From assembly GCA_964402215.1 (NCBI GenBank), contig CAYOAT010000001.1, positions 134,703 to 198,702 of the forward strand: a stretch of 64,000 bases of DNA. The letters run 5' to 3'. Shown here piece after piece: positions 10,204 through 40,919 of the stretch. The notes under the pieces are model-generated. The model had not been told where the DNA came from. It ran no database searches and worked only from the letters and a program-made list of their open reading frames with translations. Source of the DNA: an uncultured Candidatus Saccharibacteria bacterium. GTDB lineage: Bacteria > Patescibacteriota > Minisyncoccia > Phycocordibacterales > JAACPR01. How positions within the stretch are numbered: the first letter of the stretch is position 1; each line of letters starts with the position of its first letter. Position numbers and translations under genes: made by a program.

Positions 10204-10429
10204 TTTATATAAAAGTTATTTATTATTATTAGTCCTGTGGATTTGTTGATAACTTCAATTTCTCTATACCCTACTTCATTAAATTGATATTTTTTTTTAT
10301 GTAAACTGTGGAAAAAAGTTTATAAATATTTTTTTATGTTGATAACTTTTTTTAAAGTTATTTTTTATCCACAATTTTACAAACTTCTTCACAAACAAAT
10401 CCGACTTTACCCACAGCTTTTCCAGAACA
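10204..10429. promoter_or_regulatory. oriC: Candidate oriC: DnaA-box cluster plus AT-rich unwinding region in the dnaA-dnaN intergenic spacer
   Basis: One perfect TTATCCACA (10365-10373). Further 8/9 matches at 10244-10252, 10307-10315, 10337-10345 and 10407-10415, and a 7/9 match at 10236-10244. Long A/T runs lie between them. Confidence 0.55.
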
Positions 10430-11779: not shown

Positions 11780-11888
11780 TTATTGTGTTTTAACGCTGAC
11801 TCATTATATACCCGAATGTAAATTAAAGAACTTGCTTAAAATTTTTAATTATGTTAAAAACATGTTGATAAGGTGTTAATAATTTTTT

Positions 11889-12023
11889 ATGTCAATTACA
11901 TATCAACCAAAAAAAAGAAAGCGATCAAAAACACACGGATTTTTAGTTCGAAGTCGAAGCCCTGGAGGTAAAAAGGTGTTAAAAAGCCGAAGACAGAAGG
12001 GACGAAAGCGAATTTCAGTCTAA
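11889..12023 (+). CDS. rpmH: 50S ribosomal protein L34 (44 aa; absent from the ORF track because it is under 60 aa)
   Basis: Translation [44 protein letters not shown] matches the bL34 consensus (MKRTYQPSKRKR.KTHGFR.RM....GR.VL..RR.KGR..L). Its stop overlaps the rnpA start as TAATG. Confidence 0.85.
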
Positions 12024-12357: not shown

Positions 12358-13134
12358 ATGAAGGAAATATTCATCAACGTAGTCGTTCAGCCTTTTTACA
12401 ATGCCTTAATTTTATTAACTAATTTTGTTACAAGCGATTTGGGTATTGCTCTTATTATCTTAACTATAATTTTTCGTTTAGTTCTCTTCCCTCTTTACAA
12501 GAGTCAAATTAGAACGCAAATAAAAATGAATCAAATTCAGGAGCCTTTGAAAAAGATTCAAGAAAAATATAAAAATGACCGCGAGGCGTTGGGCAGAGAG
12601 ATGTTGAAACTTTATAAACAAAATAAAGTAAATCCGTTTTCTGGAATTCTTATTTTAATTATTCAGTTACCACTTCTACTTGGTTTTTATTATGTTTTTT
12701 CTAGAGCCGGATTACCAAACATTAACGAAAATCTTCTTTATTCATTTGTTCACTGGCCAGATAATTTGAGTACCGTTTTTCTTGGAATTATCGACATGAC
12801 TGGAAAAAGTTTACCTCTTGCAATAGCCGCTGCGGTCGCACAATTCTTTCAGATGCAGTTAATGCTTCCAAAAAAGAAAGCTGTTGATGAAACAAAGAAA
12901 ACCAACAATGTTTCGCCAGAGAATGTTATGAAAAGTATGCAAACACAAATGGCGTATGTCATGCCAGCAATGATGGGAATGTTTGCCTACACACTTGGTG
13001 CGATGCTGGGTCTATATTTTCTAGTCGGAAGTTTAATTTCTATTGGTCAAGAATTTTATATAAGAAAAAGTATAAAGGGTCCAGAAGAAGAACGCCTAAA
13101 GAAGGAAAAAGAATTGTCAGAGAAAATTATTTAG
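12358..13134 (+). CDS. yidC: Membrane protein insertase YidC (short Gram-positive-type form)
   Basis: 258 aa, five TM segments, conserved 60KD_IMP core. rpmH-rnpA-yidC synteny. Confidence 0.85.
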   Translation: MKEIFINVVVQPFYNALILLTNFVTSDLGIALIILTIIFRLVLFPLYKSQIRTQIKMNQIQEPLKKIQEKYKNDREALGREMLKLYKQNKVNPFSGILILIIQLPLLLGFYYVFSRAGLPNINENLLYSFVHWPDNLSTVFLGIIDMTGKSLPLAIAAAVAQFFQMQLMLPKKKAVDETKKTNNVSPENVMKSMQTQMAYVMPAMMGMFAYTLGAMLGLYFLVGSLISIGQEFYIRKSIKGPEEERLKKEKELSEKII

Positions 13135-14404
13135 TTATATCTAAACTCCACAAAGATAGGTCTTTTTTGTTTTGAAATAGTATATATTCTTCCTGTTCTG
13201 AAAGCTGGATGCCGTCAATATCAAATGCATATTTTGAAATAGATTCAAATTTTGATGTTGTGTTTAGGTCGAGATCAATTTTATATAGTTCATCTGTAAA
13301 TGAAACTGTTCCCTGGTACCACATGTCTGGGTATGGGCCAGCAGGCATCTTTCTTGGAACTGCACAATAAACCAGGTTTGTATTTTTTTTGCTCCAAACA
13401 CATTTTTCGGCAAAAGTTCTTAACCCAAAACCTTTTGTTTCGTTTGTTTTTAAATCAACAATACTTGTTGTAATAGAATCATTTTTATATTCAGAAACCA
13501 ACATTTTTGTTTGGTTTGAATTCTGATTTACAAGAAGTCCCAATCTGTCGTCTTGGATAATATTTAGCGAACCACTAACCGGGTCAAGAGAAAATGCAAA
13601 TCCTTCTGAGAAGTATGATGGTTTTGTTGTTAATATTATTTGTTTATTGACCCAATTTGCTAGCCATTCTGTGATCGCATAATCCATTATTAGTGTTTGA
13701 TTTTGTGGTGATGAACCATTGAATGTATATCCTTTGCCGTCCTTCGTATAAAAGAATTTATCTTCGGTTGGTGACTTTGTAATTGCCACTACATTTTTCG
13801 GTAAGAAGCTACCCTGTAGTAGTGAAAATGGGCTCTCGTTTTCTTCAGCAGTTGTAGTTGATGTTTTTGACAAAATTTTGGCGACAAATGTTTCTATGTT
13901 TTCGTTTGCATCAAGATATCTTAAAACAACTCCGTCCCCAGCGGTAAAAAATGATGCCTCATATACTTTAGGGACAGTCGTATTTGTAATTCTGTCGATC
14001 TTCAAACTATTTTCCGTTGTTTCAAAAACATTACCAGTTGCGCGGTCCACATATCTATAAATAGTCTCTGTTTGGTTTCGTTTAGACTCCGGAATATTTT
14101 CTTGGGATTGAGCAACTAATCTTTCAAAGGTTGTAAAACCCGAAATTGGAGAAGCGACGATTTGGCGAAGTGTCGGAATACTTTTTATTTCTTCCAAGCT
14201 AGTTGGAACACTTCCATCAGCAGTGTTTGTTGATGAACCTGTGTTATTTGACACTGGCAAAGTATATCCGTTATTTGTTGTGTCAATTTTTCCGTCAGAG
14301 TCGTTATCTACTGTTTTGTAGGATGAAATAATTAAATATCCAATAAATATTAATGCCAAAATTGTTACTGCTGCTAATATTTTTATTGCGGTTTTTCTTG
14401 TCAT
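13127..14404 (-). CDS. Membrane-anchored or secreted protein, last gene of the T4SS-like operon; beta-rich, function unknown
   Basis: N-terminal TM anchor (ILAAVTILALIFIGYLIIS), then a 400-aa hydrophilic Ser/Thr/Asn-rich domain. Confidence 0.5.
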   Translation of the reverse strand: MTRKTAIKILAAVTILALIFIGYLIISSYKTVDNDSDGKIDTTNNGYTLPVSNNTGSSTNTADGSVPTSLEEIKSIPTLRQIVASPISGFTTFERLVAQSQENIPESKRNQTETIYRYVDRATGNVFETTENSLKIDRITNTTVPKVYEASFFTAGDGVVLRYLDANENIETFVAKILSKTSTTTAEENESPFSLLQGSFLPKNVVAITKSPTEDKFFYTKDGKGYTFNGSSPQNQTLIMDYAITEWLANWVNKQIILTTKPSYFSEGFAFSLDPVSGSLNIIQDDRLGLLVNQNSNQTKMLVSEYKNDSITTSIVDLKTNETKGFGLRTFAEKCVWSKKNTNLVYCAVPRKMPAGPYPDMWYQGTVSFTDELYKIDLDLNTTSKFESISKYAFDIDGIQLSEQEEYILFQNKKDLSLWSLDITK

Positions 14405-14415
14405 GTTATTTTTTA

Positions 14416-14940
14416 CTAATCGGCCTCATTTGCAGAACCACCACCCGGCGGAGTAGGCGAAACATTCCCCCCTATTGGGCCTGCTGATGGAATGAATAGG
14501 CGCATTGAAGTAATTGAACTGTTAATTTGGTTCAAAATTAACCAGGATATTAGAGCAAGGATAAGACCAGCAATGGCTGATTGAATTTTAGTTAGACCTT
14601 CCTTTTTTTCGAAAACCGCGTCCGTTGTCATATATTGTATAGAACCTAGAACAATATATAGAATAGCAAGTACTAGTGCTATAACAATCATCCACTTGAA
14701 TACCTTTGCCAGAATTCCACCAGTTGAGTCGAAATCAGATTCAACAAAAAGACCATTGCCACTACCGGTATCAGTTAGTGGCACATAACTATCAAGAGCT
14801 TGTGCGGCTTGCTCATTCTGTGTCAAATTTTTAGTATCAGTATTCCCAAAATTAATAGTTATTAAAACCGAGATTAATATAACTAAAAAAGTTAGTGTGG
14901 CCGACACAAGCATTATTTTTTTATTAAGAATATTTATCAT
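14416..14940 (-). CDS. VirB2/TrbC-like pilin candidate
   Basis: 174 aa. Long N-terminal signal/TM, hydrophilic spacer, then two closely spaced hydrophobic helices (ILAKVFKWMIVIALVLAILYIVLG / IQSAIAGLILALISWLILNQI) and a Gly/Pro tail. This is the topology of T4SS pilins. Sits in the T4SS-like operon. Confidence 0.4.
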   Translation of the reverse strand: MINILNKKIMLVSATLTFLVILISVLITINFGNTDTKNLTQNEQAAQALDSYVPLTDTGSGNGLFVESDFDSTGGILAKVFKWMIVIALVLAILYIVLGSIQYMTTDAVFEKKEGLTKIQSAIAGLILALISWLILNQINSSITSMRLFIPSAGPIGGNVSPTPPGGGSANEAD

Positions 14941-14942
14941 AA

Positions 14943-16013
14943 TTAAAATCGTGAATCATTATTTTTATAATATTGTACCTCCGTTATTTTCGTAGCCTTT
15001 ATAAATGGGTTTGCAAGGTTATTAATGGTAACAGAAAAATATGCTGAACCGTTTGTATTTTCTTCGTTTGCAAAAACTATATAGTTTGCCGTATCTGATA
15101 TATTTAATTTTGTGATTCCTCTATACCACTCGTATCTCAAGTCCTTTAAAGCATTTTTATCAAAAAAGAACGGTGAGATATAAATTTTTATCTCGTCACT
15201 ATTCAACATAATTTTATCACTTAAATCTTTATTTGAAAAAATTCCAAGAGAAGGGCTATTCTCATAGAAAATAGGTAATGGTTTTATAAACCTAAAACTC
15301 TCGATTGTTTTATTGGTTATGCTCTCATTTACTACTTTAATTGAGACGGTAATCATTACTTCCGTGGTGTAATTTTCTGGTTTAAAATAGAGAATATTTT
15401 TTCCTGCTCCTGATGCCTGAATATTTGTTTCGCCGTTAATTCTCCATGTGAAAACTATATTATCGTCGTCAATTCTTTTTCTGTCATACCCGAGTAGGTT
15501 TGTGACGGCAACAAATTCGATCTGTGACCCTTTTGATGGGAGACGCTTGCCTTTATAAAATGGGAAAGTTGTTGTCTGTGCCTCGTAAAATATTGATAAT
15601 TCTGATGCCGATACAGTCTCAGTTGCAGTGTATTCCAAACCACGACTTTTTACCACAACTTTTACTTTTGTGTCCCCTCCGATATCACCTACTTTTGTAT
15701 TAATTTCTTTTAAGCCAAGTCCACTTGTAATCAATTTGTCATTAACATACCAAAATATTGTTGATTCATTAAGTGATAGAGATTGACTCTCAACAATAAC
15801 TGTCACTGGACTGTTAGGCGTAGGGTTTGATGGACTAAATAATAAATTAACAGATGGTTTTCTCATTTCAAGTGAAGAGGGTATCGAATCCCCGGAGTTT
15901 TCAACCGAGCTTGTATCAATATCAGTCCAAGTTGTTTGCGCCGACAGATTGAATATTGGTAAAAAACAAAAAATCAGTGAACTAAATAGTAATGTTAATA
16001 TAAAACGTTTCAT
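14943..16013 (-). CDS. Secreted beta-rich protein in the T4SS-like operon, unknown function
   Basis: Signal peptide MKRFILTLLFSSLIFCFLPIFNLSAQ, 356 aa. Confidence 0.5.
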   Translation of the reverse strand: MKRFILTLLFSSLIFCFLPIFNLSAQTTWTDIDTSSVENSGDSIPSSLEMRKPSVNLLFSPSNPTPNSPVTVIVESQSLSLNESTIFWYVNDKLITSGLGLKEINTKVGDIGGDTKVKVVVKSRGLEYTATETVSASELSIFYEAQTTTFPFYKGKRLPSKGSQIEFVAVTNLLGYDRKRIDDDNIVFTWRINGETNIQASGAGKNILYFKPENYTTEVMITVSIKVVNESITNKTIESFRFIKPLPIFYENSPSLGIFSNKDLSDKIMLNSDEIKIYISPFFFDKNALKDLRYEWYRGITKLNISDTANYIVFANEENTNGSAYFSVTINNLANPFIKATKITEVQYYKNNDSRF

Positions 16014-16072
16014 TAGTATAATTGTAACAAATCACCTACCTTTGTGAAATAGCTTATTAGTGTAATGGCAAA

Positions 16073-16471
16073 TTATACTTTCTTTGTGATAACCGCCTTC
16101 CCTATTTTTGCGACATCAGCCAAGTCGCCACTTGTGTCACCACTGTCTTCTTTCCATGTCTGTCTGATTGTCAGAATTACGCCAATAGTAGTTAGACAGA
16201 AATCAATGACAGGTATAGGTAGCAGTTCGCCAATACTACTAACCCAAAACTTTCCACCAGATTTTGGACTACTTAGTTTTATATTTGAAGCCATGAACCA
16301 AATAGAAAAACTGATAAGCGCAAAAATATCAGGAATATATGCTAATACAACTCCGACAAACGGTAATAAATCAAACAAAAACTCCATTAGATCAAAGAAA
16401 ATGGCCAACATCACCATGCTCGCGGCCGACATTTTCGAAATTCTTCTATATTTATCATTTTCTTGCGCCAT
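16073..16471 (-). CDS. Small polytopic membrane protein in the T4SS-like operon
   Basis: 132 aa, three hydrophobic segments. Co-directional and tightly spaced with virB4. Preferred over the overlapping + strand ORF 16065..16484. Confidence 0.4.
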   Translation of the reverse strand: MAQENDKYRRISKMSAASMVMLAIFFDLMEFLFDLLPFVGVVLAYIPDIFALISFSIWFMASNIKLSSPKSGGKFWVSSIGELLPIPVIDFCLTTIGVILTIRQTWKEDSGDTSGDLADVAKIGKAVITKKV

Positions 16472-16476
16472 CTTTT

Positions 16477-18360
16477 TTATTTAAACCCCTCCAAATCTTT
16501 TTGAATTTTTCTGACATTCGATTCTTGAGTAGAAACGTTTTGTGCAGAGTCGTGTAACATTTGTTTGTTTTTTCTAATATCCAAAACTTGCGCAGGGTTT
16601 GAAGTAATTAGTTGGTCTTCGGCATATGAACCAATAACTTTGATGGCTACGTGTTTTAACCCAGCAAAGAATATTCCCTCCCCGACATCTGATTCCAAGA
16701 GTAAATATTTTTCCTCGTCAGTTAAGTTGAAGGTTTTTTGGACAATATCAATTGATGATACAGATTGTTTCATCAACATTTGCATAGACGAGTTGCTGAT
16801 AATTGGAATTCCATACGGAGAATTCAAAAAGTCTTCAACGTCCTGGGTGATAGTTGAAAGACCTAGATAATATTTTCTTCCTCTTTTTGCCAAACTAAAC
16901 AAAAATGATGCAGTGTCTTCTGATTTCATCATCCACCAAGCCTCGTCGATAACAAGTAATCTTTTTCTGAGATCCTTTCTAATCGCGGTCCAAATATGGT
17001 GTGTGACCAAATACATCGCAATAGGTTTTAGCTCGTCCTCCATGTCTCGTAGAGAGAAAACAATAAAGTTTTTATTTATATCGACATTTGTTGGTTTGTT
17101 GATGAAACCTGACCAAGTTCCCTTTGTATATTTTGTCAGTTTTTGCGCTAAATTTTCCGCACCTTCCATACCACCCAGAACCAATTCAAAGTCAGTCATC
17201 ATTGGGGGTTCGATTTGTGAAAAATCAGATTCAGGCGTGATATCCTTTAAAGCATAAGTTTCTGAAATTGCACGGTCTATTATTGCATCTTCCTCTGGAG
17301 TCAAACCTCCGAACATTAATCTAAATAAACCAACAAGGTTTACAATGTTTGAACGTAAAACATCAGATGGTTGTTCATCTGGTCGTGGAGCCGGAATATC
17401 AAACGGATTAATGTGGTGATTTGAAGTTAAAGAAATATTAAAGAATCTACCGCCCGTTGCTTCGGCCATATATTCATATTCCCTTTCTGGGTCGATAACA
17501 ATAACTTCTACGCCAAACATTAGGGATCTTAGTATTTCAAGTTTTGTTGTATAAGATTTTCCTGCACCGGCCTTTGCAAATGTTACCGAATTATAATTTT
17601 CAAGTGAAAATCTGTCGAACAAAACGAGACCAGAATTGTGTCTGTTAATTCCATATAAAATACCCTTATCGGCGGTTAATTCGAATGAAATGAATGGAAA
17701 AATACTAGACAATGGCTCAGAATTTAATTTTGTATGTATACCAAGTAAATCTGTGGCAATTGGAATAATGCTCTTGAAACCCTCTTCCTGTTGAAAAACG
17801 GCCGGTTTTACATAAACTAATTTCGCTTCAAGAATTGATTTTATTTCAGATTCAACTTTATCAAGTTCGTCATCAGAACTACCATATATAGATAGATATA
17901 AACCAACGTCAAAAATCTTTTCTTGGGCTTGTTGTAGGTTGTCGCGCAATGTTTCAAGATCTCTAAATGCCGTGTCCAATTGTGGATCACGAACCAAGCC
18001 TTTCTCCATTCGCATATTAATTTGGCTTTCGACTTCCGCAACTTTTTTCTGGAACTGGCGCAAAATGACTGTGGTATCGATTGGGTGAACGAAAATTGAA
18101 ATATCAAAAACCTTGTCTAGGTTTATTATTGGAGAGAACCAATTGTCAGATAAAAATCTTGGATAAGAAATAACAAAAAAACTTCTAACAATTCTGTCAC
18201 CAAGGCTTAATTCACGAGGGGAAACTTTTAAAGCGGGAGGAGCAATAATATCCTTTAATTCCAAAACACCTGCCTCATAAATTTGCTGTGGTAAAAATGA
18301 AGTAATTTTTGGTGCTTCTGTTTTAGAACTTTTTCCTTTTATAAAATCTAATATTCCCAT
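16477..18360 (-). CDS. virB4: VirB4/TrbE/CagE-family T4SS ATPase (ATPase and middle domains)
   Basis: Walker A FAKAGAGKSYTTK. Walker B LLVIDEAWWMM. Conserved GLSTITQDVEDF C-terminal motifs. About 260 residues precede Walker A, i.e. the usual N-terminal domain is absent here and lies on the upstream ORF. Confidence 0.85.
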   Translation of the reverse strand: MGILDFIKGKSSKTEAPKITSFLPQQIYEAGVLELKDIIAPPALKVSPRELSLGDRIVRSFFVISYPRFLSDNWFSPIINLDKVFDISIFVHPIDTTVILRQFQKKVAEVESQINMRMEKGLVRDPQLDTAFRDLETLRDNLQQAQEKIFDVGLYLSIYGSSDDELDKVESEIKSILEAKLVYVKPAVFQQEEGFKSIIPIATDLLGIHTKLNSEPLSSIFPFISFELTADKGILYGINRHNSGLVLFDRFSLENYNSVTFAKAGAGKSYTTKLEILRSLMFGVEVIVIDPEREYEYMAEATGGRFFNISLTSNHHINPFDIPAPRPDEQPSDVLRSNIVNLVGLFRLMFGGLTPEEDAIIDRAISETYALKDITPESDFSQIEPPMMTDFELVLGGMEGAENLAQKLTKYTKGTWSGFINKPTNVDINKNFIVFSLRDMEDELKPIAMYLVTHHIWTAIRKDLRKRLLVIDEAWWMMKSEDTASFLFSLAKRGRKYYLGLSTITQDVEDFLNSPYGIPIISNSSMQMLMKQSVSSIDIVQKTFNLTDEEKYLLLESDVGEGIFFAGLKHVAIKVIGSYAEDQLITSNPAQVLDIRKNKQMLHDSAQNVSTQESNVRKIQKDLEGFK

Positions 18361-18365
18361 GATAA

Positions 18366-18986
18366 TTATTGTTTAGTTGGTGAATTAACTTCGCTTGGAT
18401 TGAATATTTTGTAATAAATTTCGATTATTTCTTCCGTTCCAAGGCGGGCGACGCGCACACCGCACCTACTAATTCCCTGTTTAACCACAGAAACTCTTTG
18501 CTCCAGCTGACTTCGACTTTCTTCAAAATCGTCAGCAACCTGTTGAACCTTTGTTTTTTTATTTCCGCCAAACATTTTGCTGCCTTTTGATAAGTTAAGT
18601 CCTGGCGGAGTATAAGGAATGACAATAAAAAAGTTTTTTGTCATTATATTTACACTTTCGGTAAAAGTTTTAATAAAGTTTATGTATTCTTTTGATTGAA
18701 TTCGAAGCAAATCATTTGTCTGCGATTTGGTTTTATCTTCCAACATCGCCAGATAGGGTCTAATATCAAGCTTTCTTGATTGTATAAAAATTTGAATTGT
18801 AAAATCTAATGAGTTAAGAAAATTTTGAAATTGAAAAATTATCGCTTCCTGTTCGTCCTGGGATTTTAAAGCAAAGTTAAGAGACGAGGTCATCATAATT
18901 GCGCGCATCGATCCATCTTTCAATATAGCAACGCCATCCCTGACCTCTTTTATTGGAACAAAATCTTGTGATGTTTTTGGTACCAT
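18366..18986 (-). CDS. Stand-alone VirB4 N-terminal (CagE_TrbE_VirB-like) domain protein
   Basis: 206 aa. ...VPIKEVRDGVAILKDGSMRAIMMTSSLNFALKSQDEQEAIIFQFQNFLNSL... aligns by eye with the VirB4 N-terminus (YLPYIGHLSDHIVLLEDGSIMSIARIDGVAFELEE...AFNTLFRNI). Stop is 5 nt upstream of the virB4 ATG in another frame. Confidence 0.5.
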   Translation of the reverse strand: MVPKTSQDFVPIKEVRDGVAILKDGSMRAIMMTSSLNFALKSQDEQEAIIFQFQNFLNSLDFTIQIFIQSRKLDIRPYLAMLEDKTKSQTNDLLRIQSKEYINFIKTFTESVNIMTKNFFIVIPYTPPGLNLSKGSKMFGGNKKTKVQQVADDFEESRSQLEQRVSVVKQGISRCGVRVARLGTEEIIEIYYKIFNPSEVNSPTKQ

Positions 18987-19028
18987 TTGAAATTATTATA
19001 CACTATATTATCTACACCCCTAAACTTG

Positions 19029-19436
19029 CTATTCGATTTTCTCTTTAATGTCCAAACTCCAAGATAAGTCTTTCAATTTGCTGTCAGAGAGCTTGGGCAA
19101 AAACATTCCTGGATCAATAGCGGCTTCTGCGTTACCTTTTGCTTCTATTTTCTTTGGTATTTTTTTCCAAATATAAATTTTACTGCCTGTAAAATATTTT
19201 ACAGAATTCTCAAATGTTTGGACAAAAGGTTGCCATCCATCAAATTTAAAAAAAGCAAACATAAGGAAAAGAGCAACAACAGGAATGCCTAGAATAATAG
19301 CAATTATTTTTGGAAAGATGCTCCAAATAATAAACCCTATTCCAGCAGCACCACCGACGTACAAAAATTGTTTTGCCGTTAATGGGCCGAATATTTTGTC
19401 TTCAACCCCGATAAATTGTGGAACTTGATATTTCAT
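19029..19436 (-). CDS. VirB3/PrgI-like small two-TM membrane protein
   Basis: 135 aa. Two adjacent TM helices (FLYVGGAAGIGFIIWSIF / IIAIILGIPVVALFLMFAFF) near the N-terminus. Immediately upstream of the VirB4 ORFs, as in Gram-positive-type T4SS. Confidence 0.4.
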   Translation of the reverse strand: MKYQVPQFIGVEDKIFGPLTAKQFLYVGGAAGIGFIIWSIFPKIIAIILGIPVVALFLMFAFFKFDGWQPFVQTFENSVKYFTGSKIYIWKKIPKKIEAKGNAEAAIDPGMFLPKLSDSKLKDLSWSLDIKEKIE

Positions 19437-19443
19437 TTATAAC

Positions 19444-20061
19444 TTATTCTAACACTTCCCTGTAAGGGTCGATAACTTTTGGTTTTACAACATAATTTTC
19501 CGTCTTTGATTCGACAACAGAAGTCAGTTTTTGTTCAGCGATTTTATTTTCTATGCTGGTTACTTCTGTTTTGGCTGGCGCTGTTTCAATATTTTTAACT
19601 AGTGTTGTCGTTGGTTCATCAGATAGTATTTCCAAATGGTCAGACATTTCTGCTGCAATGGATTCCTTTGTAGGTGTGGAGGTTTTTATGTTGTCTTCTG
19701 GCAAGATAGAAACAGATTGCTTCTTCTCTTGTAGCTCTACAAGTTTTTGCTTTATGTCTCTAAAAACTTCATCTTCTACTGAATTAATTATGCTGTTTAA
19801 TTTTTCATCCTCAAGTTTAATTTCTTGTTTAAGGACATCGGCATATTTTATTGGACTAATAATGCCAAGCATTACAAGAAAAGTATTTTTTTCAAGAGTA
19901 TTAGCATCTCCTATTACAAGATTATTTTTTTTAGATATCGCGCGTATTTTTTGTTCCCAATGAGAATTAACAATCGCTTCTTTTATTACTTGTGGTAGCG
20001 AATTAAATATTTCTACTATTGGATCGTTTTCAGTGCTTTGTTGGTTGTTTGGTTCTTGCAT
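19444..20061 (-). CDS. Hydrophilic coiled-coil protein in the T4SS-like operon
   Basis: Start trimmed to M17 (MQEPNN...) to remove a 38-nt overlap with the upstream gene. No TM and no recognisable domain. Confidence 0.4.
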   Translation of the reverse strand: MQEPNNQQSTENDPIVEIFNSLPQVIKEAIVNSHWEQKIRAISKKNNLVIGDANTLEKNTFLVMLGIISPIKYADVLKQEIKLEDEKLNSIINSVEDEVFRDIKQKLVELQEKKQSVSILPEDNIKTSTPTKESIAAEMSDHLEILSDEPTTTLVKNIETAPAKTEVTSIENKIAEQKLTSVVESKTENYVVKPKVIDPYREVLE

Positions 20062-20071
20062 AATAATTTGC

Positions 20072-22210
20072 TTATGATTTTGGAGTAGCTGGAGGAGTTG
20101 GACCGGCACCCTTGCTCATTTCGGCTGTCAGGGTTTTTATCAATTGCGCCATAGCTTTTTCATCATTGCTCTTGTACATACTCTTTACTCGATCTTCAAT
20201 TGCTTTATTTTGTCCCTGCGTTAGTGGAATTATTTCATTAGCAAATTTTCTAATACCCAGATTTGGATCGCTACCCAATATTTTTTTGGCTTCCCTTTTC
20301 TCAATTGAATTCTTTAGAGATTCCAAACTTGCGGAAGTTGCGGTAAGCTCAGACTCATCTTCATTATTGTTTTCAATTTGTGCCGTAATTGCTTCGACGT
20401 CTCTCAAGGCTAAGTCGGCTTGATTTCTATAGTTGTTTGCTCCAATTATGTCACCAGCAGCTTCAAGTTTTACAGCCTCGGCAGAGAAATTCTTTGCCTC
20501 ATCCTTAACTACGTTAAGCTGGGTTTGTAAATCTTTTTGTCTTTGTCTAATACCCTCAAGTTGTGTCTTGGTTCGTGCAAGTTCACTTTCGGCTTCCTTA
20601 TATTCATTATCATCTCTAGCACTTGCAAGTGCGCGTCTCTGAATATCTGCATCTTGACCTCTTCCCGTCAAACCAAGTCTTTCATTTCTGTCAGCGATTT
20701 CTTTTGCAGCATCCTTAGTTTCCTTTTCAAATGTTGAACTCGAACCTTTGCCGGCATCAAGACCTGAAAGTTTTAATAATTCAGCAGCACCCCTAGTGTT
20801 TCTGATATCAAAAGTACTTTTTGCAGCTTTATTTCCAACATCGGATATACCTCGGCCAACAAAGTTCGCAGCAAAATTATTTCCGACACGACGTTTGAAT
20901 CTCGCCCCAAAACTATCGCCCTCTGCAGTTTTCCAATTTTGTAGAGTTGAGCTTGTTTTAGCTAATCTGTTTCCAACTCCACCAATAAGTTTTCTACCAG
21001 CAAATGCGCCCATACCCATTGCCATTCCCATACCTGCTTCTGCACCATGTGCACCTGATTGCTTTCCAACTATAACTGCTCCTATTAAAAATGAAGTAAC
21101 AATTATAAAGTTCAAGATTATACTAAAGGCACCACCATTACCCCCATGTTCGTTAGCTTCAGCAATGTTCCCCCACGCCGATACTCCGTTTGCGACATTT
21201 GTTGCTGAATCAATAAAACCTGGACCCGCAAGCTGATATGAAATATATAAAAAGAGAAACATGGCTGGAAGTGAAATTAAATGGCTTAATAGGCTTGTTG
21301 ACCATTTTTCAGTGTACTTACTTAATACGGGCAATATCCACCCACCGAACATTATAGGTGAAGCAATTAATAGAAAAATTAAACTTATAAATCTCGTAAA
21401 TACAACTATTGCAACTGCAAAAAAAACAATTGCAGCTATTACCAAAAATATAGCGACGAGGATATAAATACCAGCCTTTTTATAGTTGTCGGTTTCTCTT
21501 GCTAGGGCTGGATCACTATCCATATCATAGAACAGTGTAAAACCAAGTCTTTGCATAAAACAATTTGATAAACCACCGTCAGTAAAATAACGCTCATCTT
21601 GAGGTGTTAGGGCTTCAGGATTATCACCGACAGTGACTGTTGGTGCGTTGCAGCCATTCATATTGTCATAGAAACTAAGCGCTAGGACATTTGAAACGTC
21701 GATAGCCACCGATGTAAAAAAGAAGCTAAAATTGATTAGTAGGGCACTCATTATAATTTGGCCCAATCTTTTTTTGCTATTCTCTGACCAACCACCAATT
21801 ATAGTCGTAATTGATAGGTACAAAAGGCCGAAAATAAAGAATAAATTTAATACATCACGGAAAATACTCCAAGCATTTGCAATGGCGTTGGTATCTTTAA
21901 TAATTCTGGCCATTTGTGTTACTCCAATATAAATAACAAAGTTTAGAAAAGTTCCTGAAAGCCATATGATCCATGCACATAGTCTAAAAAATAGTTTAGC
22001 AATCCCTAATATCAAATATCCAAATGCAGTTCTGAGTGCCTCGCCAATGCCCAAAATGGAGCTATCCTCGGTTTCTGCTGCTTTGTTTTCTGCCGGCGCG
22101 GCTTGCGCAATATGAGTTGAAATTATAAAAATAAACGCAATGGCAATTATCAACAAAATAAAAGCCAGTAACGTATTTTTTTTATATGAATTTAATTTCA
22201 ATTTAAACAT
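20072..22210 (-). CDS. VirB6/TrbL-like polytopic inner-membrane protein with Gly-rich segment and about 300-aa C-terminal coiled-coil extension
   Basis: Signal peptide, at least 6 TM segments, GMGMAMGMGAFAG Gly-zipper, long charged coiled-coil tail. Architecture of VirB6/TrbL (or Gram-positive TcpH/PrgH-like) channel proteins. Confidence 0.5.
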   Translation of the reverse strand: MFKLKLNSYKKNTLLAFILLIIAIAFIFIISTHIAQAAPAENKAAETEDSSILGIGEALRTAFGYLILGIAKLFFRLCAWIIWLSGTFLNFVIYIGVTQMARIIKDTNAIANAWSIFRDVLNLFFIFGLLYLSITTIIGGWSENSKKRLGQIIMSALLINFSFFFTSVAIDVSNVLALSFYDNMNGCNAPTVTVGDNPEALTPQDERYFTDGGLSNCFMQRLGFTLFYDMDSDPALARETDNYKKAGIYILVAIFLVIAAIVFFAVAIVVFTRFISLIFLLIASPIMFGGWILPVLSKYTEKWSTSLLSHLISLPAMFLFLYISYQLAGPGFIDSATNVANGVSAWGNIAEANEHGGNGGAFSIILNFIIVTSFLIGAVIVGKQSGAHGAEAGMGMAMGMGAFAGRKLIGGVGNRLAKTSSTLQNWKTAEGDSFGARFKRRVGNNFAANFVGRGISDVGNKAAKSTFDIRNTRGAAELLKLSGLDAGKGSSSTFEKETKDAAKEIADRNERLGLTGRGQDADIQRRALASARDDNEYKEAESELARTKTQLEGIRQRQKDLQTQLNVVKDEAKNFSAEAVKLEAAGDIIGANNYRNQADLALRDVEAITAQIENNNEDESELTATSASLESLKNSIEKREAKKILGSDPNLGIRKFANEIIPLTQGQNKAIEDRVKSMYKSNDEKAMAQLIKTLTAEMSKGAGPTPPATPKS

Positions 22211-22212
22211 GT

Positions 22213-23232
22213 TTATATCGCTATGTCACCCAGACCCGCGGCACCGAAAGATTCTTTAACAACCTCATCTATAATGGCAAATATTAATTCATTAAACTCG
22301 TCTGCAAGCGCCAGTCTGTCATAAGGAATTCCTGTAATATTTGATATCTTTTGTTGAATCATTTGGCCCGGGGTTATTACATTTCCGTCTTTGTCTCTTA
22401 TGTTCATAAAACCACTACCCCAGGTTAAATTCATCGCCCAGGTGTTTTTTTCGGCCTCAATACGGGCTTGAGCTCTCTGAGACAATTTATCAGCGTCGTC
22501 ATAAGGGTCATTTGCCTGTGTTAATGTAAACCAACTACGCCATCCACCTTTAGCAAAATCGCCACTGGTAAATTGTTGTACTACACCTCCGCCAACAGCA
22601 CCATCTTCACCCAAAATCGTTGATAGTCTGCAGTCTTTTGGTTTCTCCTTTGATTGCCAATTAATTAGTAGTGAAGCAGTTATTCTAATTTTAAAATTTG
22701 AACACAAATCAACATCATCGATTAATTCATCCAGTGCTGTTCCAAAGTCCCTATCAGAGATATTTCTGAAAAATGCCCCAGGATTTTCCAAAAACATTGG
22801 CTTACCATTTGCCCCGTTTTTTACCCATTGGGTCATGCTTACTAGTATGTCTCTTAACATGGATTCAACCAGACATGTTGCGATAGAATCCCACGGAGGT
22901 AGGCTGGTTAATCCATTGCCAGTTTCCTTTGCTCGAATCGATGCATCCTTTACTGGAACTTCAAGAGAAAGAATCCCGCCTGTAAATGATGAAATCCATT
23001 CACTTAGCTTGTCACTAAGCCATCTCATTGCTTCCATCAAAAAAAGGTCAGCGTATGCCTTTACAATACATTTAGCAACTGTCGCCCCTATTGCCAATCC
23101 TGCATCGAGTAGAAGATTATCATTTCTATTATCATTACGGTCTGTCGCATAGTAATCGCGCACATCAGAGGTCGAGTCTAAAGCATGTGCCAAATGAGGG
23201 TTGTATAAAAAAAAGTTGCCAAATATTAACAA
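22213..23232 (-). CDS. Soluble 339-aa protein in the T4SS-like operon, unknown function
   Basis: No TM or signal peptide. Abuts the VirB6-like gene with its stop adjacent to that gene's start. Confidence 0.45.
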   Translation of the reverse strand: MLIFGNFFLYNPHLAHALDSTSDVRDYYATDRNDNRNDNLLLDAGLAIGATVAKCIVKAYADLFLMEAMRWLSDKLSEWISSFTGGILSLEVPVKDASIRAKETGNGLTSLPPWDSIATCLVESMLRDILVSMTQWVKNGANGKPMFLENPGAFFRNISDRDFGTALDELIDDVDLCSNFKIRITASLLINWQSKEKPKDCRLSTILGEDGAVGGGVVQQFTSGDFAKGGWRSWFTLTQANDPYDDADKLSQRAQARIEAEKNTWAMNLTWGSGFMNIRDKDGNVITPGQMIQQKISNITGIPYDRLALADEFNELIFAIIDEVVKESFGAAGLGDIAI

Positions 23233-23294
23233 AAAAAATTATTAAAAAATAAATTGATTTAAATATTTTTTTGCACAGTATTTCGTACATGTAA

Positions 23295-24239
23295 TTAGTA
23301 TCCATCTGACATAATAAATGTTTCTCCATTAAATATTATACCATTGTTTTTTAGGTATTGGAGAATATTGGACCAGTCATCCTGTATAATTTCAGCACTT
23401 TTGTAGTACAAAGATAAACCAAGAAGTTGTAAAAGAGGATCGCTTTCAGCATCTAACCATATAAGTGATATCGCAGTATTATAATAATTGTTAGCTAACC
23501 GAGTTTGTATTTCGGCCATTTTGGCTGGAGTTTTCGTTTCGATGAGGGCTATAGATATTTTTTCAATAGCCTCAAACTGTGCGTTTATGTCGCTAACACC
23601 AGACTGTTCGTAAGACGATCTTGCATCACTTTCTATTTTGATTATTCTATTTGCATATTGAAGTATGCCGTTTCTATCAAGCAAATCATCAAAAGTAAAC
23701 AATGTTGATTGTTCGTAACGATTTTTTATTTTTTTGCTGTTTATGGCCTCAGATGAAACTTTTAATATAAAATCTTTTTTTTGCTGCACAGATAAATCAG
23801 AGCCGGTTTCATTTTTTAAAGAAAAATACTCTTGCATAAAAGCATCAGAAAATTCTTTTGTCAGTCCTGTTGATTGAAGCGGACTATTTTCGATTTTATT
23901 AAGTATTCTTTGTTCTATACTAATATTTTCATCGTCTGGTCCGGCCTTGGCTGGGTTTCGATTTAATTTTACTTCCTCCCCATCATTTGTTTTATCGCCA
24001 TCAGTATCGGCAAGGTTGGGGTCGCTTCCCCATAATGATTCTTCCCAATCTAATAAACCATCAGCATCAGTGTCTTCTTGTAATTTTGTGTCTAAATCAA
24101 TCGAAAGAGAAGTAACGGGTTTGGCGCCAGTTTTTTCAGAAAAACCAGACTCCATGTTTCTTGATATTAAAACAATCAACACAACAATTATGGTTGTAAC
24201 CAGAAACACAACCGAGATTTTTTTACTTGGTATCCTCAT
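23295..24239 (-). CDS. Membrane-anchored protein with Asp-rich calcium-binding-like repeats; first gene of the T4SS-like operon
   Basis: N-terminal TM (VVFLVTTIIVVLIVLIS). Repeats DTDADGLLDWEE / DTDGDKTNDGEE resemble DxDxDG Ca-binding (thrombospondin type-3-like) loops. Confidence 0.5.
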   Translation of the reverse strand: MRIPSKKISVVFLVTTIIVVLIVLISRNMESGFSEKTGAKPVTSLSIDLDTKLQEDTDADGLLDWEESLWGSDPNLADTDGDKTNDGEEVKLNRNPAKAGPDDENISIEQRILNKIENSPLQSTGLTKEFSDAFMQEYFSLKNETGSDLSVQQKKDFILKVSSEAINSKKIKNRYEQSTLFTFDDLLDRNGILQYANRIIKIESDARSSYEQSGVSDINAQFEAIEKISIALIETKTPAKMAEIQTRLANNYYNTAISLIWLDAESDPLLQLLGLSLYYKSAEIIQDDWSNILQYLKNNGIIFNGETFIMSDGY

Positions 24240-24368: not shown

Positions 24369-27353
24369 TTGATTATAATGCAGAATAAGATGTTTTTATC
24401 TGTTAGACAAAATAAATTTTGGTTTTTTTCTTTAAGATCTATTTTTACCACCATAATTTTTGTTTTAATTTTTTCTAATGTTGATATCAAGTTTGCAAAC
24501 GCTGTTGGTTGGGTTGGTATACCATCGGATTTTTATTCAGCAGGTGCGGTAATGCCTTACGGAGGACAAAGTATTTTAGGCATGTTTTGCCCATGCTCTA
24601 AGGGAAACATTTTTCTTATGCACGATTACAGAACAAGGATGATGTTTCCTGTTTTCCAGGATTTTGCTGAAACAATTTACCATACTAAGCAAAATCTCCC
24701 TGCACTACTTTCACCTGGAAATTACCAGTTAGGAAATTTGGAAGGAGAAACTGAATGTATCGTCGGTGTACCGCCATATTGTCTTGATTTTCTATCAATA
24801 CCAGCATTTAAAATAAAAAACTTTGGTAATGGTGGAATTGTGGCTGCTGGAGGCAATCCAATAAACCCACTAGCCTGGGTTGCACTTGGAACAGCCGCGG
24901 CGATATATGGTTGGTCACTTATTTATGCTGATGGAGATGATGGAACAGCTGAAGGTAGCCCCGGCTGTAATGCCAAATTAACCAAAGTTTGGTTCTGTGG
25001 TAAAGAGCATGGACCAATGGTGGCACATTTTGAAACGCCAGGAAGAACATCTTGGCCACAGAAACAAGATGGAGGTGGTCCAATTGAATATTTATATACA
25101 TGGAGCGGAGCGATTTCTGGTGAAGGGCAGACGCGAACCGTAAATTTCCCGACTCAGGGTTTGAAAAATGTTAAAGTAAAAGTTAAAGATTCATCAAAGG
25201 CCGAACTTTCTAGAGATTGTCCACCAGTTATTGTGGCAAAGCAATCGCCAACAGTTAATCCAAGCTCAAGTGATTTAAATGTTTCATGTACAGTAAGTAA
25301 AACCGTTGTAAATACCGGCGATCGGGTCACCTTTTCTCTAGAAGTCTTTGGTGGCAGCGGGGGCTCTGAATATAGATGGTATGGCGACGTTACGAGCGCG
25401 ACAACAACCTACGCAACTTCCTCGTCCTCTTGGTACAATGAAAATTATATAGATAAATCATTTACGTCAGCAGGAACAAAAATTGTCAGTGTTATGGTCT
25501 CTGATAGTAACGGTAATACCGCACTTAGATATTGCGCGCCAGTTGTAGTGAAAAACGAGGCAGAAACTTTGATGTGCGGTAGAAACTATTTAAATTTAAC
25601 TTGTACAGTTGATAAAAGATCTGTTAATCCGGGAGAGACAATTACCTACTCTGCCAATGGGGCTGGAGGAACGCCGGAACCGGCAATTATGCTTAACGGC
25701 TTAATATATTTAAATGGAAAAAAAGTTGACTGGTTAAAAGTCTGCCAGAACAGCAAAAATTTAGTTAATATGTTTACGTATTACGGAGATTGGAATAGTT
25801 CGAACCTTCCTCATGCCGGAGATATGGTAGAAGTGTCAATTCGATCAATTGATGGTCGTTATGAATTAAAGGGTGAAGCCGAGTGGCCAGAGAGCGGCTG
25901 CGGACCAGAGGGCGGTCAAACATATGATTCATGTGCTGGTTCAGGAGCACCGACAGACGGAGGTTTATCCTGTCCTGGAGCAACACCAACAATACCACCA
26001 GTAAATCCTGTTGAGTGTCCAGATTACTCTGGATCAGCTCCTGCTACTGCCGGATTGGAACCAATTACTTCTTCAACCAATTTAGTTTCATTTGCTGAAA
26101 AAAATGGAGTTGTGTCAATGGAAGCCGAACACTACAAATCACAGACCGGGTACTCTCTTTACAGTAATTCTGAAGCATCGGGTGGAAAAATTATGCAGGT
26201 TGGCGCCGGTGGAAGTCTAAATTTTGAATTCAATATAACAAACCCAGGAACTTGGTATCTATGGATCAGAACCCATGTTACAGATTCGAATAACAACGGC
26301 ATGTATATTAAATTAAATGGTTCCGATCTACGTCATTCAAGCGGAATAAATGATATATATTTAAGCAAAAATGGTTGGTCTTGGATGCCAGAGTGGTTAT
26401 TTGGTGAATCAGATCACAATGGTCCTATTAGTTTTAGATTAAACTCTGGTAAAAATACTATCTCTATTACAAAGAGAAAAATTGAACAACCAATAATAGA
26501 TAAAATTGTTTTAACCAGAACAAATAATCCACCAACTGGTTTTGGACCTGCCGAAACAACTGCGTCGTCAGCGGGGACAACTCCAATAACCGATCCAATT
26601 TCTAATCCTGGCGCAACAGATTTTGCTGCAGTCACGGGACACAGAGCTAGTTTCTTGTTTGATGATGCGGATACACGTGTCATGAACATTTTGTCGCCAA
26701 GGTTATCTAATTCAAGATTTGAACAAATTTTGTCGAGGACGAAAGGAAATGGTGATAATGCAATTTATTTGTTCTTAATCAATCAGGGAGACGGACCTTA
26801 TACGCCACACACATTTTATAAAGATGACCGAATTGGTGGTCAAATTGATAGTGCCAAACTCTCAATATATAAGCAGAGATTAGATGCAATCAAGTCTTTG
26901 GGTTATAAAGTAATATTTTGGATACGCGCTGATGATTCTAGAACAATGATGCAAGAATCAATACAAAATTATAAAAAATACCATCAAGATATTGTTGATA
27001 ATTTTAGTTCATATGCCGACGGATATGTAATTGGTTTAGAGTCAAACGAATATATGGATGCCTCGACCGAAAAAACACTGATCGCTGATATGAAATCGAG
27101 AACAAATAAGACGGTTGGTGTACATTATGGGTCAAGCGATAGTTATAATTCTAGGGCGAAAAATAGTGGAGCTGATATATACTATAGGCAATACGGGTGG
27201 GTATCTTGTAGCAAAGTTGTATCGGTAACAGCTACTACAATTTCGGCAGTTTCTCCAATGAAAGTTGTGGCTGCTGAGTATGATAAAGATTCTGATAGTG
27301 GTTGTGGAGCAGGTGCCCTTCAAGCAGGAGCAATCGGTTACGGAAATGGATAG
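24369..27353 (+). CDS. Large (994 aa) secreted or membrane-anchored surface protein: Cys-rich N-domain, Ig/PKD-like repeats, CBM-like beta-sandwich, C-terminal clan GH-A-like TIM-barrel region
   Basis: N-terminal hydrophobic anchor. Repeated ...V(S/T)CTV(S/D)K..VN(T/P)G(D/E).(V/I)T(F/Y)S... Ig-like modules. Trp/Tyr-rich 'AEHYKSQTGY...WYLWIRTH' CBM-like block. GLESNEY resembling the Asn-Glu acid/base motif of clan GH-A. GC about 45-50%, above neighbours. Start ambiguous (24369/24378/24390). Confidence 0.7.
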   Translation: MIIMQNKMFLSVRQNKFWFFSLRSIFTTIIFVLIFSNVDIKFANAVGWVGIPSDFYSAGAVMPYGGQSILGMFCPCSKGNIFLMHDYRTRMMFPVFQDFAETIYHTKQNLPALLSPGNYQLGNLEGETECIVGVPPYCLDFLSIPAFKIKNFGNGGIVAAGGNPINPLAWVALGTAAAIYGWSLIYADGDDGTAEGSPGCNAKLTKVWFCGKEHGPMVAHFETPGRTSWPQKQDGGGPIEYLYTWSGAISGEGQTRTVNFPTQGLKNVKVKVKDSSKAELSRDCPPVIVAKQSPTVNPSSSDLNVSCTVSKTVVNTGDRVTFSLEVFGGSGGSEYRWYGDVTSATTTYATSSSSWYNENYIDKSFTSAGTKIVSVMVSDSNGNTALRYCAPVVVKNEAETLMCGRNYLNLTCTVDKRSVNPGETITYSANGAGGTPEPAIMLNGLIYLNGKKVDWLKVCQNSKNLVNMFTYYGDWNSSNLPHAGDMVEVSIRSIDGRYELKGEAEWPESGCGPEGGQTYDSCAGSGAPTDGGLSCPGATPTIPPVNPVECPDYSGSAPATAGLEPITSSTNLVSFAEKNGVVSMEAEHYKSQTGYSLYSNSEASGGKIMQVGAGGSLNFEFNITNPGTWYLWIRTHVTDSNNNGMYIKLNGSDLRHSSGINDIYLSKNGWSWMPEWLFGESDHNGPISFRLNSGKNTISITKRKIEQPIIDKIVLTRTNNPPTGFGPAETTASSAGTTPITDPISNPGATDFAAVTGHRASFLFDDADTRVMNILSPRLSNSRFEQILSRTKGNGDNAIYLFLINQGDGPYTPHTFYKDDRIGGQIDSAKLSIYKQRLDAIKSLGYKVIFWIRADDSRTMMQESIQNYKKYHQDIVDNFSSYADGYVIGLESNEYMDASTEKTLIADMKSRTNKTVGVHYGSSDSYNSRAKNSGADIYYRQYGWVSCSKVVSVTATTISAVSPMKVVAAEYDKDSDSGCGAGALQAGAIGYGNG

Positions 27354-39730: not shown

Positions 39731-39802
39731 GCGCCCGTGGTGAAATGGATATCACAACGGTCTTCGGAACCGTCGTTGTGGGTTCGAATCCTGCCGGGCG
39801 CA
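39731..39802 (+). tRNA. tRNA-Arg (anticodon TCG)
   Basis: Hand-folded cloverleaf: acceptor gcgcccg/cgggcgc, D-arm gtga/tcac, anticodon arm acggt-cttcgga-accgt, T-arm with ttcgaat loop, 72 nt, no encoded CCA. Confidence 0.75.
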
Positions 39803-39848
39803 CAAGAAGATGATGTTTTCCGAAAATTATTATTAATAATAAAAACAA

Positions 39849-40079
39849 ATGCTTGAAAAATTTAGGAGTTTAGTTAGAAAAAATAAGAATTTAAACCTTA
39901 TTTTAAGCGGTATTTCGTTGGTTTATATTTGGAGAGGAGTTTGGAGTTTAACTGATATGTTCACATACGGTGAATATTCAAGTCCAGAATTTTGGTCATA
40001 TTTAATTCCAATGATTATTTCTTTCGCTTATATTTATTTTAATGATTATAAGTTTGATGAGTTGGTTCATAAGGATTAA
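39849..40079 (+). CDS. Small two-TM membrane protein between two tRNA genes (hypothetical)
   Basis: 76 aa, two hydrophobic segments. Only ORF in the tRNA-Arg / tRNA-Gly spacer. Confidence 0.3.
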   Translation: MLEKFRSLVRKNKNLNLILSGISLVYIWRGVWSLTDMFTYGEYSSPEFWSYLIPMIISFAYIYFNDYKFDELVHKD

Positions 40080-40869: not shown

Positions 40870-40874
40870 TTTAA

Positions 40875-40905: not shown

Positions 40906-40919
40906 CGGAATCTGCGGCT

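Follow-up and report, generated by a model that had tools for sequence, protein, structure and literature searches.

The T4SS gene cluster

A cluster of eleven genes for a type IV secretion system (T4SS)-like apparatus lies within a 64-kb stretch of contig CAYOAT010000001.1 (the window, in whose numbering all cluster coordinates are given), from an ultrasmall bacterium of the Paceibacteria (candidate phyla radiation). An earlier note, made from the sequence alone, had described a single-strand run of eleven genes resembling a type IV secretion operon. This description has held up: eleven co-directional open reading frames (ORFs) on the minus strand span positions 24239 to 13127, and profile matches support a VirB4 ATPase, a separate VirB4 N-terminal domain, a PrgI/VirB3 protein and a VirB2-like pilin among their products. 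The genes are called g1 to g11 here, in the order in which they are read. With g4 taken from the ATG at 20061 (205 amino acids (aa), as in the public gene calls), the intergenic gaps from g1 to g11 measure 62, 2, 10, 7, 42, 5, 5, 59, 2 and 11 nucleotides (nt), and thus range from 2 to 62 nt. The genes are as follows.

g1, 23295..24239, minus strand: 314 aa, N-terminally anchored extracytoplasmic protein with one transmembrane (TM)-like segment (residues 8-26)
g2, 22213..23290, minus strand: reads as 339 aa in the window (22213-23232), full length probably about 359 aa, from 23290; member of a large unnamed family
g3, 20072..22210, minus strand: 712 aa, probable extended VirB6/TrbL-like polytopic membrane protein (TrbL score near the cutoff)
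g4, 19444..20061, minus strand: 205 aa from the ATG at 20061 (the ORF reaches a GTG at 20109); hydrophilic, acidic, no TM segment
g5, 19029..19436, minus strand: 135 aa, PrgI/VirB3-like protein with two TM segments (PF12666, 42.1 bits)
g6, 18366..18986, minus strand: 206 aa, stand-alone VirB4 N-terminal domain, TrsD/TraC-like (VirB4 and TrsD profiles)
g7, 16477..18360, minus strand: 627 aa, VirB4 ATPase without its N-terminal domain, which g6 supplies (NF045971, PF19044, 4ag5)
g8, 16073..16471, minus strand: 132 aa, small polytopic membrane protein of a fast-evolving unnamed family, in the slot after virB4
g9, 14943..16013, minus strand: 356 aa, secreted protein with three tandem immunoglobulin (Ig)/FN3-like beta-sandwich domains
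g10, 14416..14940, minus strand: 174 aa, VirB2/TrbC-like pilin (PF18895)
g11, 13127..14404, minus strand: 425 aa, N-terminally anchored extracytoplasmic protein with a TM segment (residues 9-27)

Hydrophobicity scans found one N-terminal segment each in g1, g9 and g11, about seven segments in g3, two in g5, two to three in g8, and a signal segment plus two helices in g10, in agreement with the membrane topologies that had been proposed for these seven proteins. The predicted locations are cytoplasmic for g4, g6 and g7, polytopic in the membrane for g3, g5 and g8, and exported or anchored for g1, g2, g9, g10 and g11. A scan for transcription signals yielded 5 terminator-like hairpins (7.6 expected from shuffled sequence) and 43 promoter-like sites (43.0 in shuffled sequence). 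Because neither count exceeds that of shuffled sequence, the scan argues neither for nor against a single transcript.

The secretion core

The product of g7 scores above the cutoff of the CD1110-type VirB4 model NF045971 (355.5 bits, cutoff 325; profile positions 184-733 of 752) and also matches PF19044 (P-loop_TraG) with 80.1 bits. In a search of the Protein Data Bank (PDB) it matched the VirB4 C-terminal domain (4ag5, E=1.3e-40) and TrwK of R388 (E=5e-4). With its nucleotide-binding motifs intact (Walker A, AKAGAGKS; Walker B, LLVIDE at residue 468), the original assignment of g7 as the VirB4 ATPase is well founded.

The profile alignment of g7 begins only at position 184, and g6 covers the N-termini of the VirB4 profiles, as expected of the stand-alone N-domain that had been proposed. 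It aligns with positions 2-117 of NF045971 and with positions 103-233 of NF045975 (44 bits), and among VirB4 models it scores best on that of a mycoplasma integrative conjugative element (ICE). The g6 protein also aligns with the TrsD model NF041427 almost from end to end (positions 14-199 of 201), at a score of 24.8 bits that lies below the cutoff, and the precomputed annotation places it in PF26593 (TraC-like); searched alone against PDB sequences, it had no match. The cytoplasmic secretion motor is divided between two polypeptides, the TrsD-like N-domain g6 and the VirB4 ATPase g7. The best-scoring VirB4 models for the cluster are of the monoderm CD1110 and mycoplasma types.

Two small membrane proteins of the core are recognized by their families at the positions claimed for them. 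Two genes upstream of virB4, g5 matches PrgI (PF12666) well above threshold (cutoff 27, E=1.3e-10) and has two TM segments, confirming it as VirB3-like; it is presumed to be the membrane tether of VirB4. Three genes downstream of virB4, g10 matches the T4SS_pilin family (PF18895) with 32.7 bits (cutoff 26.6), in line with its proposed VirB2/TrbC-like nature. It consists of a long leader followed by two hydrophobic helices linked by a short charged loop, and this two-helix core is conserved in an alignment of 12 orthologues. Both g10 and 9 of the 12 orthologues show a sub-threshold, near-full-length match to NF045849, which models the Mbov_0395 pilin-like conjugal transfer protein found in mycoplasma ICEs. 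The similarity hints, as a lead rather than a result, at a VirB2-like protein in some MPF-FATA systems, and it bears on the published suggestion that the pilin may have been co-opted from diderm systems.

The assignment of g3 as VirB6/TrbL-like has fared less clearly. The protein has about 7 TM segments in residues 1-385, followed by a hydrophilic, coiled-coil-type tail of roughly 300 residues. Its match to TrbL (PF04610; residues 237-343, E=6.4e-5) reaches 23.3 bits, near but below the cutoff of 25.9, and a profile of its orthologues gave only chance-level matches to PDB sequences. The signal does recur among relatives: 8 of the 35 orthologues match TrbL at E<=0.01, and precomputed annotation assigns PF04610 and/or PF19590 to 5 of 24 sequence relatives. 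A VirB6/TrbL-like identity for g3 is probable on this basis.

Chromosomal setting and conservation

The cluster is flanked by ksgA on one side and by yidC-rnpA-rpmH-dnaA-dnaN on the other. Three features of the latter flank are listed here.

dnaN, 9100-10203: cluster flank
dnaA, 10430-11779: cluster flank
rpmH (ribosomal protein L34), about 11886-12022: 44 aa, an unlisted small ORF before rnpA

The dnaA-dnaN spacer (10204-10429) contains two perfect DnaA boxes (TTWTCCACA at 10307 and 10365) as well as relaxed boxes, and it probably marks oriC. The perfect boxes between dnaA and dnaN therefore place the cluster within a few kb of the probable origin; the boxes and rpmH are all within 3 kb of the cluster. 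The G+C content is 0.33-0.38 throughout the cluster and its flanks, host-like and with no shift.

One genome per species was searched with the g7 VirB4, yielding 582 confirmed relatives, and the best 80 loci were fetched. The VirB4 proteins of these 80 are 73-87% identical to g7, and their records are all Patescibacteria or uncultured metagenome-assembled genomes, with titles such as Paceibacterota, Parcubacteria, Taylorbacteria, Campbellbacteria, Kaiserbacteria and similar. The comparison of synteny that the earlier note had proposed was made with the 24 long loci among these 80 Paceibacteria species loci. All 24 are collinear, with the order ksgA - g1..g11 - yidC - (rnpA) - dnaA - dnaN kept wherever the genes are detectable. 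Judged by gene order, the arrangement is not a matter of chance, because it is the same in every one of the 24.

Conservation within the cluster is graded. VirB4 is found in 80 of the 80 loci, g6 in 78 and g5 in 77. Median identities in the loci (inflated for VirB4, whose similarity served to rank the loci) are 76% for VirB4, 61% for the TrsD-like protein, 48% for PrgI, 40% for the pilin, 32% for g11 and 27-28% for g1, g2, g3, g4 and g9; the reference genes of the same loci give 62% (DnaA), 44% (DnaN) and 48% (KsgA). Even with the selection bias toward VirB4, the T4SS motor is constrained at least as much as core replication proteins, and the locus as a whole resembles a housekeeping locus and is subject to strong purifying selection.

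On the ksgA side, the order outward from the cluster is a gene for a 994-aa secreted protein, ksgA, a UvrD/PcrA helicase gene, a LysM-M23 peptidase gene and comM. Genes for competence and type IV pili are scattered over the 64 kb (538-2217, 51085-52821, 52808-54046, 59528-60910 and 31509-33065) and encode two PilB-type T2SSE proteins, a PilC-type T2SSF protein, ComEC and ComM. The region 39731-43324 holds four tRNA genes (Arg-TCG, Gly-GCC, Pro-TGG and Gly-TCC) among small genes that include those for DUF5680 and RNHCP domain proteins.

Exported and unassigned components

None of the proteins encoded by g1, g2, g4, g8, g9 and g11 has an above-threshold family. The anchored g1 protein carries two Asp-rich motifs of calcium-binding (TSP3-like) type followed by a helical region. 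The match to TSP3_bac is sub-threshold (16.7 bits, cutoff 25), and the DxDxD..D motif, at residues 56 and 78 of g1, is present in 30 of 31 orthologues. The gene itself was detected in 33 of the 80 loci. The g4 protein is presumably cytoplasmic; it matched no Pfam family, and an N-terminal hydrophobic stretch was found in none of 23 orthologues. It is detectable in 22 of the 80 loci, at the same position. In 38 of 68 loci the slot after virB4, occupied here by g8, is filled by an ORF of 60 aa or more, and nearly all of the slot proteins examined are small membrane proteins with the motif D..Q....IP..G / F..WF...GV.F / E.IP....LP..T. Searched against Pfam and NCBIfam, g8 and 33 positional orthologues had no match. 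The profile of g9 orthologues gave only chance-level matches to PDB sequences.

The anchored g11 protein is present in 58 of the 80 loci and has eight invariant residues (C335, C347, W362, Y363, G365, D371, D395 and K413). A profile of 36 g11 sequences matches TolB propellers (7mx5, E=3e-4), and single orthologues weakly match DPPIV_N or PD40; g11 is probably a beta-propeller of the TolB/PD40 type.

One might expect a VirB8-like protein in such a cluster, but no VirB8/PrgL family was matched, in Pfam by the eleven cluster proteins or in NCBIfam by the nine that were scanned for these families. The g11 protein is bitopic but matches a propeller rather than the NTF2 fold. VirB8 was also rarely found in Patescibacteria by a published survey (PMC12102498). 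In an all-against-all hhalign comparison, no two of the ten cluster families were paired at more than 30% probability in the output (the parsing was not independently checked), and hence no hidden paralogy was seen, for example of g8 with PrgI or the pilin. Hidden Markov models built from these families detected no further copies in the rest of the window.

A LysM-M23 peptidase is encoded 6 kb from the operon (30326-31507, plus strand), and 8 of the 80 related loci likewise have such a gene close to the cluster. M23 and LysM domains occur on some VirB1-like proteins in the published survey (PMC12102498). The peptidase could be the missing wall hydrolase, the linkage being weak.

The 994-aa secreted protein gene (24369-27353, plus strand) is divergent from the operon and lies between ksgA and g1. 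Its product has sub-threshold Ig/PKD-like matches, a GH115_C-like domain above the Pfam cutoff and a long C-terminal region. This neighbour was considered as a part of the T4SS and dropped, because a search of the 80 related loci, covering this position and the rest of the fetched flanks, turned up no homologue. The gene appears to be an insertion specific to this lineage, and the protein possibly binds or degrades glycans of the host surface.

Export and frameshift of g2

The g2 product had been described as a 339-aa soluble protein, and this description was misleading. An N-terminal hydrophobic segment is present in 40 of 43 orthologues, and in the window a frameshift, a 1-nt homopolymer difference, leaves 339 aa of the g2 ORF, downstream of two stop codons. 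Three assemblies of the same population differ at the start of g2 (23233-23295) only in homopolymer lengths, which are A3/T8 in the window, A4/T7 in the JGI assembly and A3/T7 in the ENA assembly. Only the ENA version encodes an intact signal peptide (MYEILCKKIFKSIYFLIIFLLIFGNFFLYNPHLAHA/LDS), the window and JGI versions being frameshifted in different ways. The ATG of the full-length gene corresponds to window position 23290, four bases past the stop codon of g1. The differences in the A/T runs reflect either assembly error or real slippage-type variation. Given the intact signal peptide in the ENA assembly and the hydrophobic N-terminus of the orthologues, g2 is predicted to be exported or anchored rather than soluble.

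No match to g2 was found in Pfam, NCBIfam or PDB sequences, and its orthologue profile matched PDB sequences only at chance level. The family is nonetheless large: a profile search of 1.84 billion cluster representatives recovered 6,022 relatives (50% clustering), 3,657 of them at E<=1e-30. The relatives are mostly 500-560 aa long, and most are without a Pfam domain; some of the long ones end in Bact_surface_Ig-like or discoidin (F5/8 type C) domains. In none of the relatives checked does a Pfam model cover the conserved N-terminal domain of roughly 330 residues, and the g2 family is a candidate for a new family definition. AlphaFold2 modelling from a 19-sequence alignment gave a mostly helical structure of low confidence, with a pLDDT of 46.

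Relationship to known systems

The locus is a typical member of a system that is already known, the relaxase-free, pilin-bearing kind of T4SS described for the phylum in 2023-2025, and the interpretation reached in the earlier note repeats the published one (PMC12102498, PMC10633639, PMC12857230). In a survey of 3,035 Patescibacteria genomes, VirB4 was found in 2,417, nearly always as a member of a single clade within MPF-FATA (Quinonero-Coronel et al. 2025, Microb Genom, PMC12102498). In these genomes virB4 is accompanied by TrsD, PrgI/VirB3, VirB6 and VirB2-like pilins, whereas relaxases are rare and homologues of the type IV coupling protein (T4CP) are mostly distant; the virB4 neighbourhoods of Paceibacteria and Microgenomatia are rich in dnaA, dnaN, rnpA, ksgA and rpmH (PMC12102498). 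The window comes from the same phylum and shares with the Patescibacteria clade VirB4 with an adjacent TrsD-like protein, PrgI/VirB3, a probable VirB6, a VirB2-like pilin, the position near dnaA, dnaN, rnpA and ksgA, and no nearby relaxase or T4CP. Nothing essential differs; the window has a single pilin gene rather than an array, and the extra gene for the 994-aa secreted protein.

A closely related system is the cluster SEML1_0006-0019 of Southlakia epibionticum ML1. Transposon sequencing (Tn-seq) showed that this cluster, pilins included, is essential for epibiotic growth, and the absence of coupling and relaxase proteins was noted (Wang et al. 2023, Cell, PMC10633639). According to a 2025 review, these are the first T4SSs essential to the bacterium that carries them, and the pilus was speculated to be a conduit for exchange with the host (PMC12857230). 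Like the window, the Southlakia cluster is origin-proximal, carries VirB6-like - PrgI - TrsD-like - VirB4 in this order on a single strand together with PF18895 pilins, and contains no recognisable relaxase or coupling protein; its Tn-seq essential genes include the counterparts of g3, g5, g6, g7 and g10. The Southlakia pilins, however, number six paralogues, encoded on the opposite strand; there are also two very large VirB6-like proteins and an NTF2/VirB8-like protein, and virB4 is followed by genes for lysozyme-like and PEGA-domain proteins. In place of this set the window has g8, the triple-Ig protein, one pilin and the TolB-like propeller, with no hydrolase in the operon.

Conjugative T4SSs of the MPF-FATA class (pCF10 Prg/Pcf, pGO1 Trs, the CTn2 CD1110 type and mycoplasma ICEs) share with the window a VirB4 of the CD1110 family and PrgI, both above cutoff. 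The separate TrsD-type N-domain recalls pGO1, and the lack of a VirB7, VirB9 and VirB10 outer-membrane core is also MPF-FATA-like. Unlike the window locus, these systems reside on mobile elements and have a relaxase, a T4CP, a VirB1-type hydrolase, VirB8-like proteins and surface adhesins. To our knowledge, they do not make VirB2 pili, the mycoplasma pilin-like protein aside. The Agrobacterium VirB and R388 Trw systems (MPF-T) share the logic of VirB2, VirB3, VirB4 and, probably, VirB6, with TrwK still detectable from g7. They are diderm systems with a VirB7/9/10 core, VirB5, VirB8, VirB11 and VirD4, none of which was found in the window cluster.

Conjugation functions and the question of mobility

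The earlier note had reported neither a relaxase nor VirD4 in the window, and had argued on this ground against a conjugative element. Scans against Pfam of the window's non-nested ORFs of >=100 aa bear out the absence of both and extend it to the readable flanks on the public contig, which has the same sequence (called genes, for 10 kb on the upstream side of the window and about 5.5 kb on the downstream side). No relaxase family was matched in these scans, which included no separate search for oriT, and no T4SS-DNA_transf, TraG-D_C or TcpA-type match indicated a VirD4/TcpA coupling protein. The only other secretion ATPases in the window scans are the two T2SSE (PilB-type) proteins, and the flanks contain only housekeeping genes. 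The further statement that the window contains no integrase is literally wrong. An Xer-like tyrosine recombinase is encoded at 35502-36452 (plus strand), scoring 242 bits on both the XerC and the XerD TIGR models and 234.5 bits on the archaeal XerA-type model (cutoff 220). It may be the single Xer recombinase of a reduced genome. Its presence does not alter the argument, because it is 11 kb away with housekeeping genes between.

An ordinary ICE or ICE remnant, with its relaxase, coupling protein and integrase outside the window, would explain why the VirB4 belongs to a family named for the ATPase of a conjugative transposon (CD1110 type), why the pilin and the VirB4 N-domain resemble mycoplasma ICE proteins, and why a tyrosine recombinase lies 11 kb away. 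Such an element would not be expected in the same ksgA / yidC-dnaA context, collinear, in dozens of species, nor with so uniform a G+C content, and the recombinase is Xer-like and separated from the cluster by housekeeping genes. To these points can be added the lack of a relaxase or T4CP in either flank of the window (10 kb upstream, about 5.5 kb downstream). Moreover, for 99.3% of the VirB4 proteins from Patescibacteria the nearest relative is in the same class, and just 109 relaxases were found in 3,035 genomes (PMC12102498). An ICE is therefore very improbable. The locus is not an ICE, because it is chromosomal, origin-adjacent and host-like in G+C content, with conserved housekeeping flanks and no relaxase or T4CP nearby; the claim that this is not a conjugative element is likewise sustained by the same site in all 24 long loci.

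Host exchange, DNA uptake or attachment

We read the region as a chromosomal, origin-proximal T4SS typical of Patescibacteria, with the gene order of Paceibacteria, which derives from monoderm (MPF-FATA) conjugation machinery and is no longer conjugative; we give this reading a probability of roughly 0.85. Conjugation is unlikely because there is no relaxase and no local coupling protein. As to function, the earlier note had offered DNA uptake or host-cell interaction. A non-conjugative apparatus of reduced-genome episymbionts, for host interaction or uptake, corresponds to the published view. DNA uptake is the weaker of the two roles in light of the ComEC, ComM and pilus genes in the window and of Southlakia genetics.

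A machine for DNA uptake would be a T4SS working inwards, as ComB does in Helicobacter and Ced in Sulfolobales, and would take up host or environmental DNA as a source of nucleotides or for transformation. This would account for the lack of a relaxase or coupling protein nearby, a reduced genome must scavenge nucleotides, comM is located 7 kb from the cluster, and the authors of the published survey favour the import of DNA or other macromolecules (PMC12102498). However, the standard competence route is already present in the window, with ComEC at 59528-60910, ComM, two PilB and PilC. In S. epibionticum, comEC is needed for transformation and dispensable for growth (PMC10633639); its deletion is tolerated at the cost of transformation, while the T4SS is indispensable (PMC10633639, PMC12857230), and hence the essential role is not ComEC-linked DNA uptake. 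Likeness to Ced is also slight (CedB, NF041017, 34 bits against a cutoff of 700; CedD, 17 bits against a cutoff of 600). A dedicated uptake machine is accordingly unlikely. Somewhat less likely still is an organelle that consists of a VirB2-type filament for host attachment and translocates nothing. In its favour, the locus has retained a pilin gene although T4SSs of the monoderm type normally lack pili (PMC12857230), several of the exported proteins are Ig-like or of adhesin type, and there is no coupling protein to recruit substrates. Against an attachment organelle, type IV pili already provide host adhesion in the phylum (PMC10633639, PMC12102498) and their genes are in the window, and the strongly conserved extended VirB6-like protein and split VirB4 fit a working translocon, although neither point is decisive. 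Contact-dependent exchange with the host is ranked above dedicated DNA uptake, because the ComEC/ComM/type IV pilus route is in the window and Saccharibacterial genetics separate the two functions.

A mechanism for host exchange can be proposed from established T4SS biology, the parts list and its conservation being what the analysis itself provides. Hexamers of VirB4, with their separate N-domain (TrsD), would dock via PrgI/VirB3 on a VirB6 platform. The docked VirB4 would drive extraction of the pilin from the membrane and its polymerisation into a pilus or a short conduit across the cell wall. The g11 propeller, the triple-Ig protein g9, the calcium-binding-type protein g1 and the g2-family protein would form the wall-spanning and host-contact part, these exported proteins replacing the VirB7/9/10 core and the adhesins in a cell with a single membrane. 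The assembled apparatus would link the epibiont to its host cell and carry protein or other macromolecules, whether by exporting effectors, by importing material from the host, or both.

Several points weigh against the reading as a non-conjugative host-exchange T4SS. We know of no experiment on any Paceibacteria system. A T4CP may be encoded elsewhere in the genome, and VirD4-like genes are in fact far from virB4 in most Patescibacteria genomes (PMC12102498). The VirB6 score of g3 itself is below threshold, the cluster shows no recognisable VirB8-like or VirB1-like component, and the conservation comparison favours VirB4, by whose similarity the loci were chosen. The roles given to g1, g2, g4, g8, g9 and g11 follow from location, predicted topology and fold class only; the fold of g11 comes from a weak profile match, and the structure model of g2 failed.

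Implications

Much of bacterial diversity belongs to the Patescibacteria, whose members live attached to other microbes. The interest of this locus lies in the function of the system and in its unannotated conserved components rather than in the discovery of the locus. The window offers a clean, complete Paceibacteria-type example with all eleven genes, and the new details are the export and frameshift of g2, the large g2 family, the triple-Ig structure of g9, the TolB-like g11 and the small membrane protein after virB4. These sharper descriptions of unannotated parts could guide structural and genetic work in a manipulable Paceibacteria-host culture.

A tentative proposal, which we consider possible but doubtful, is that g1, g2, g4, g8, g9 and g11 constitute an undescribed wall-spanning and host-contact module of Paceibacteria-type T4SSs, with g11 and g9 as a wall scaffold and the g2 family as a VirB5-like tip or adhesin. 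To call g2 a VirB5 homologue is speculation only, with no sequence support. If the proposal is correct, the likeness of g10 to the mycoplasma protein would suggest that VirB2-type pilins are ancestral in part of MPF-FATA and were not borrowed from diderms, and such a module together with a VirB2 pilus in a monoderm would let an epibiont import macromolecules from its host.

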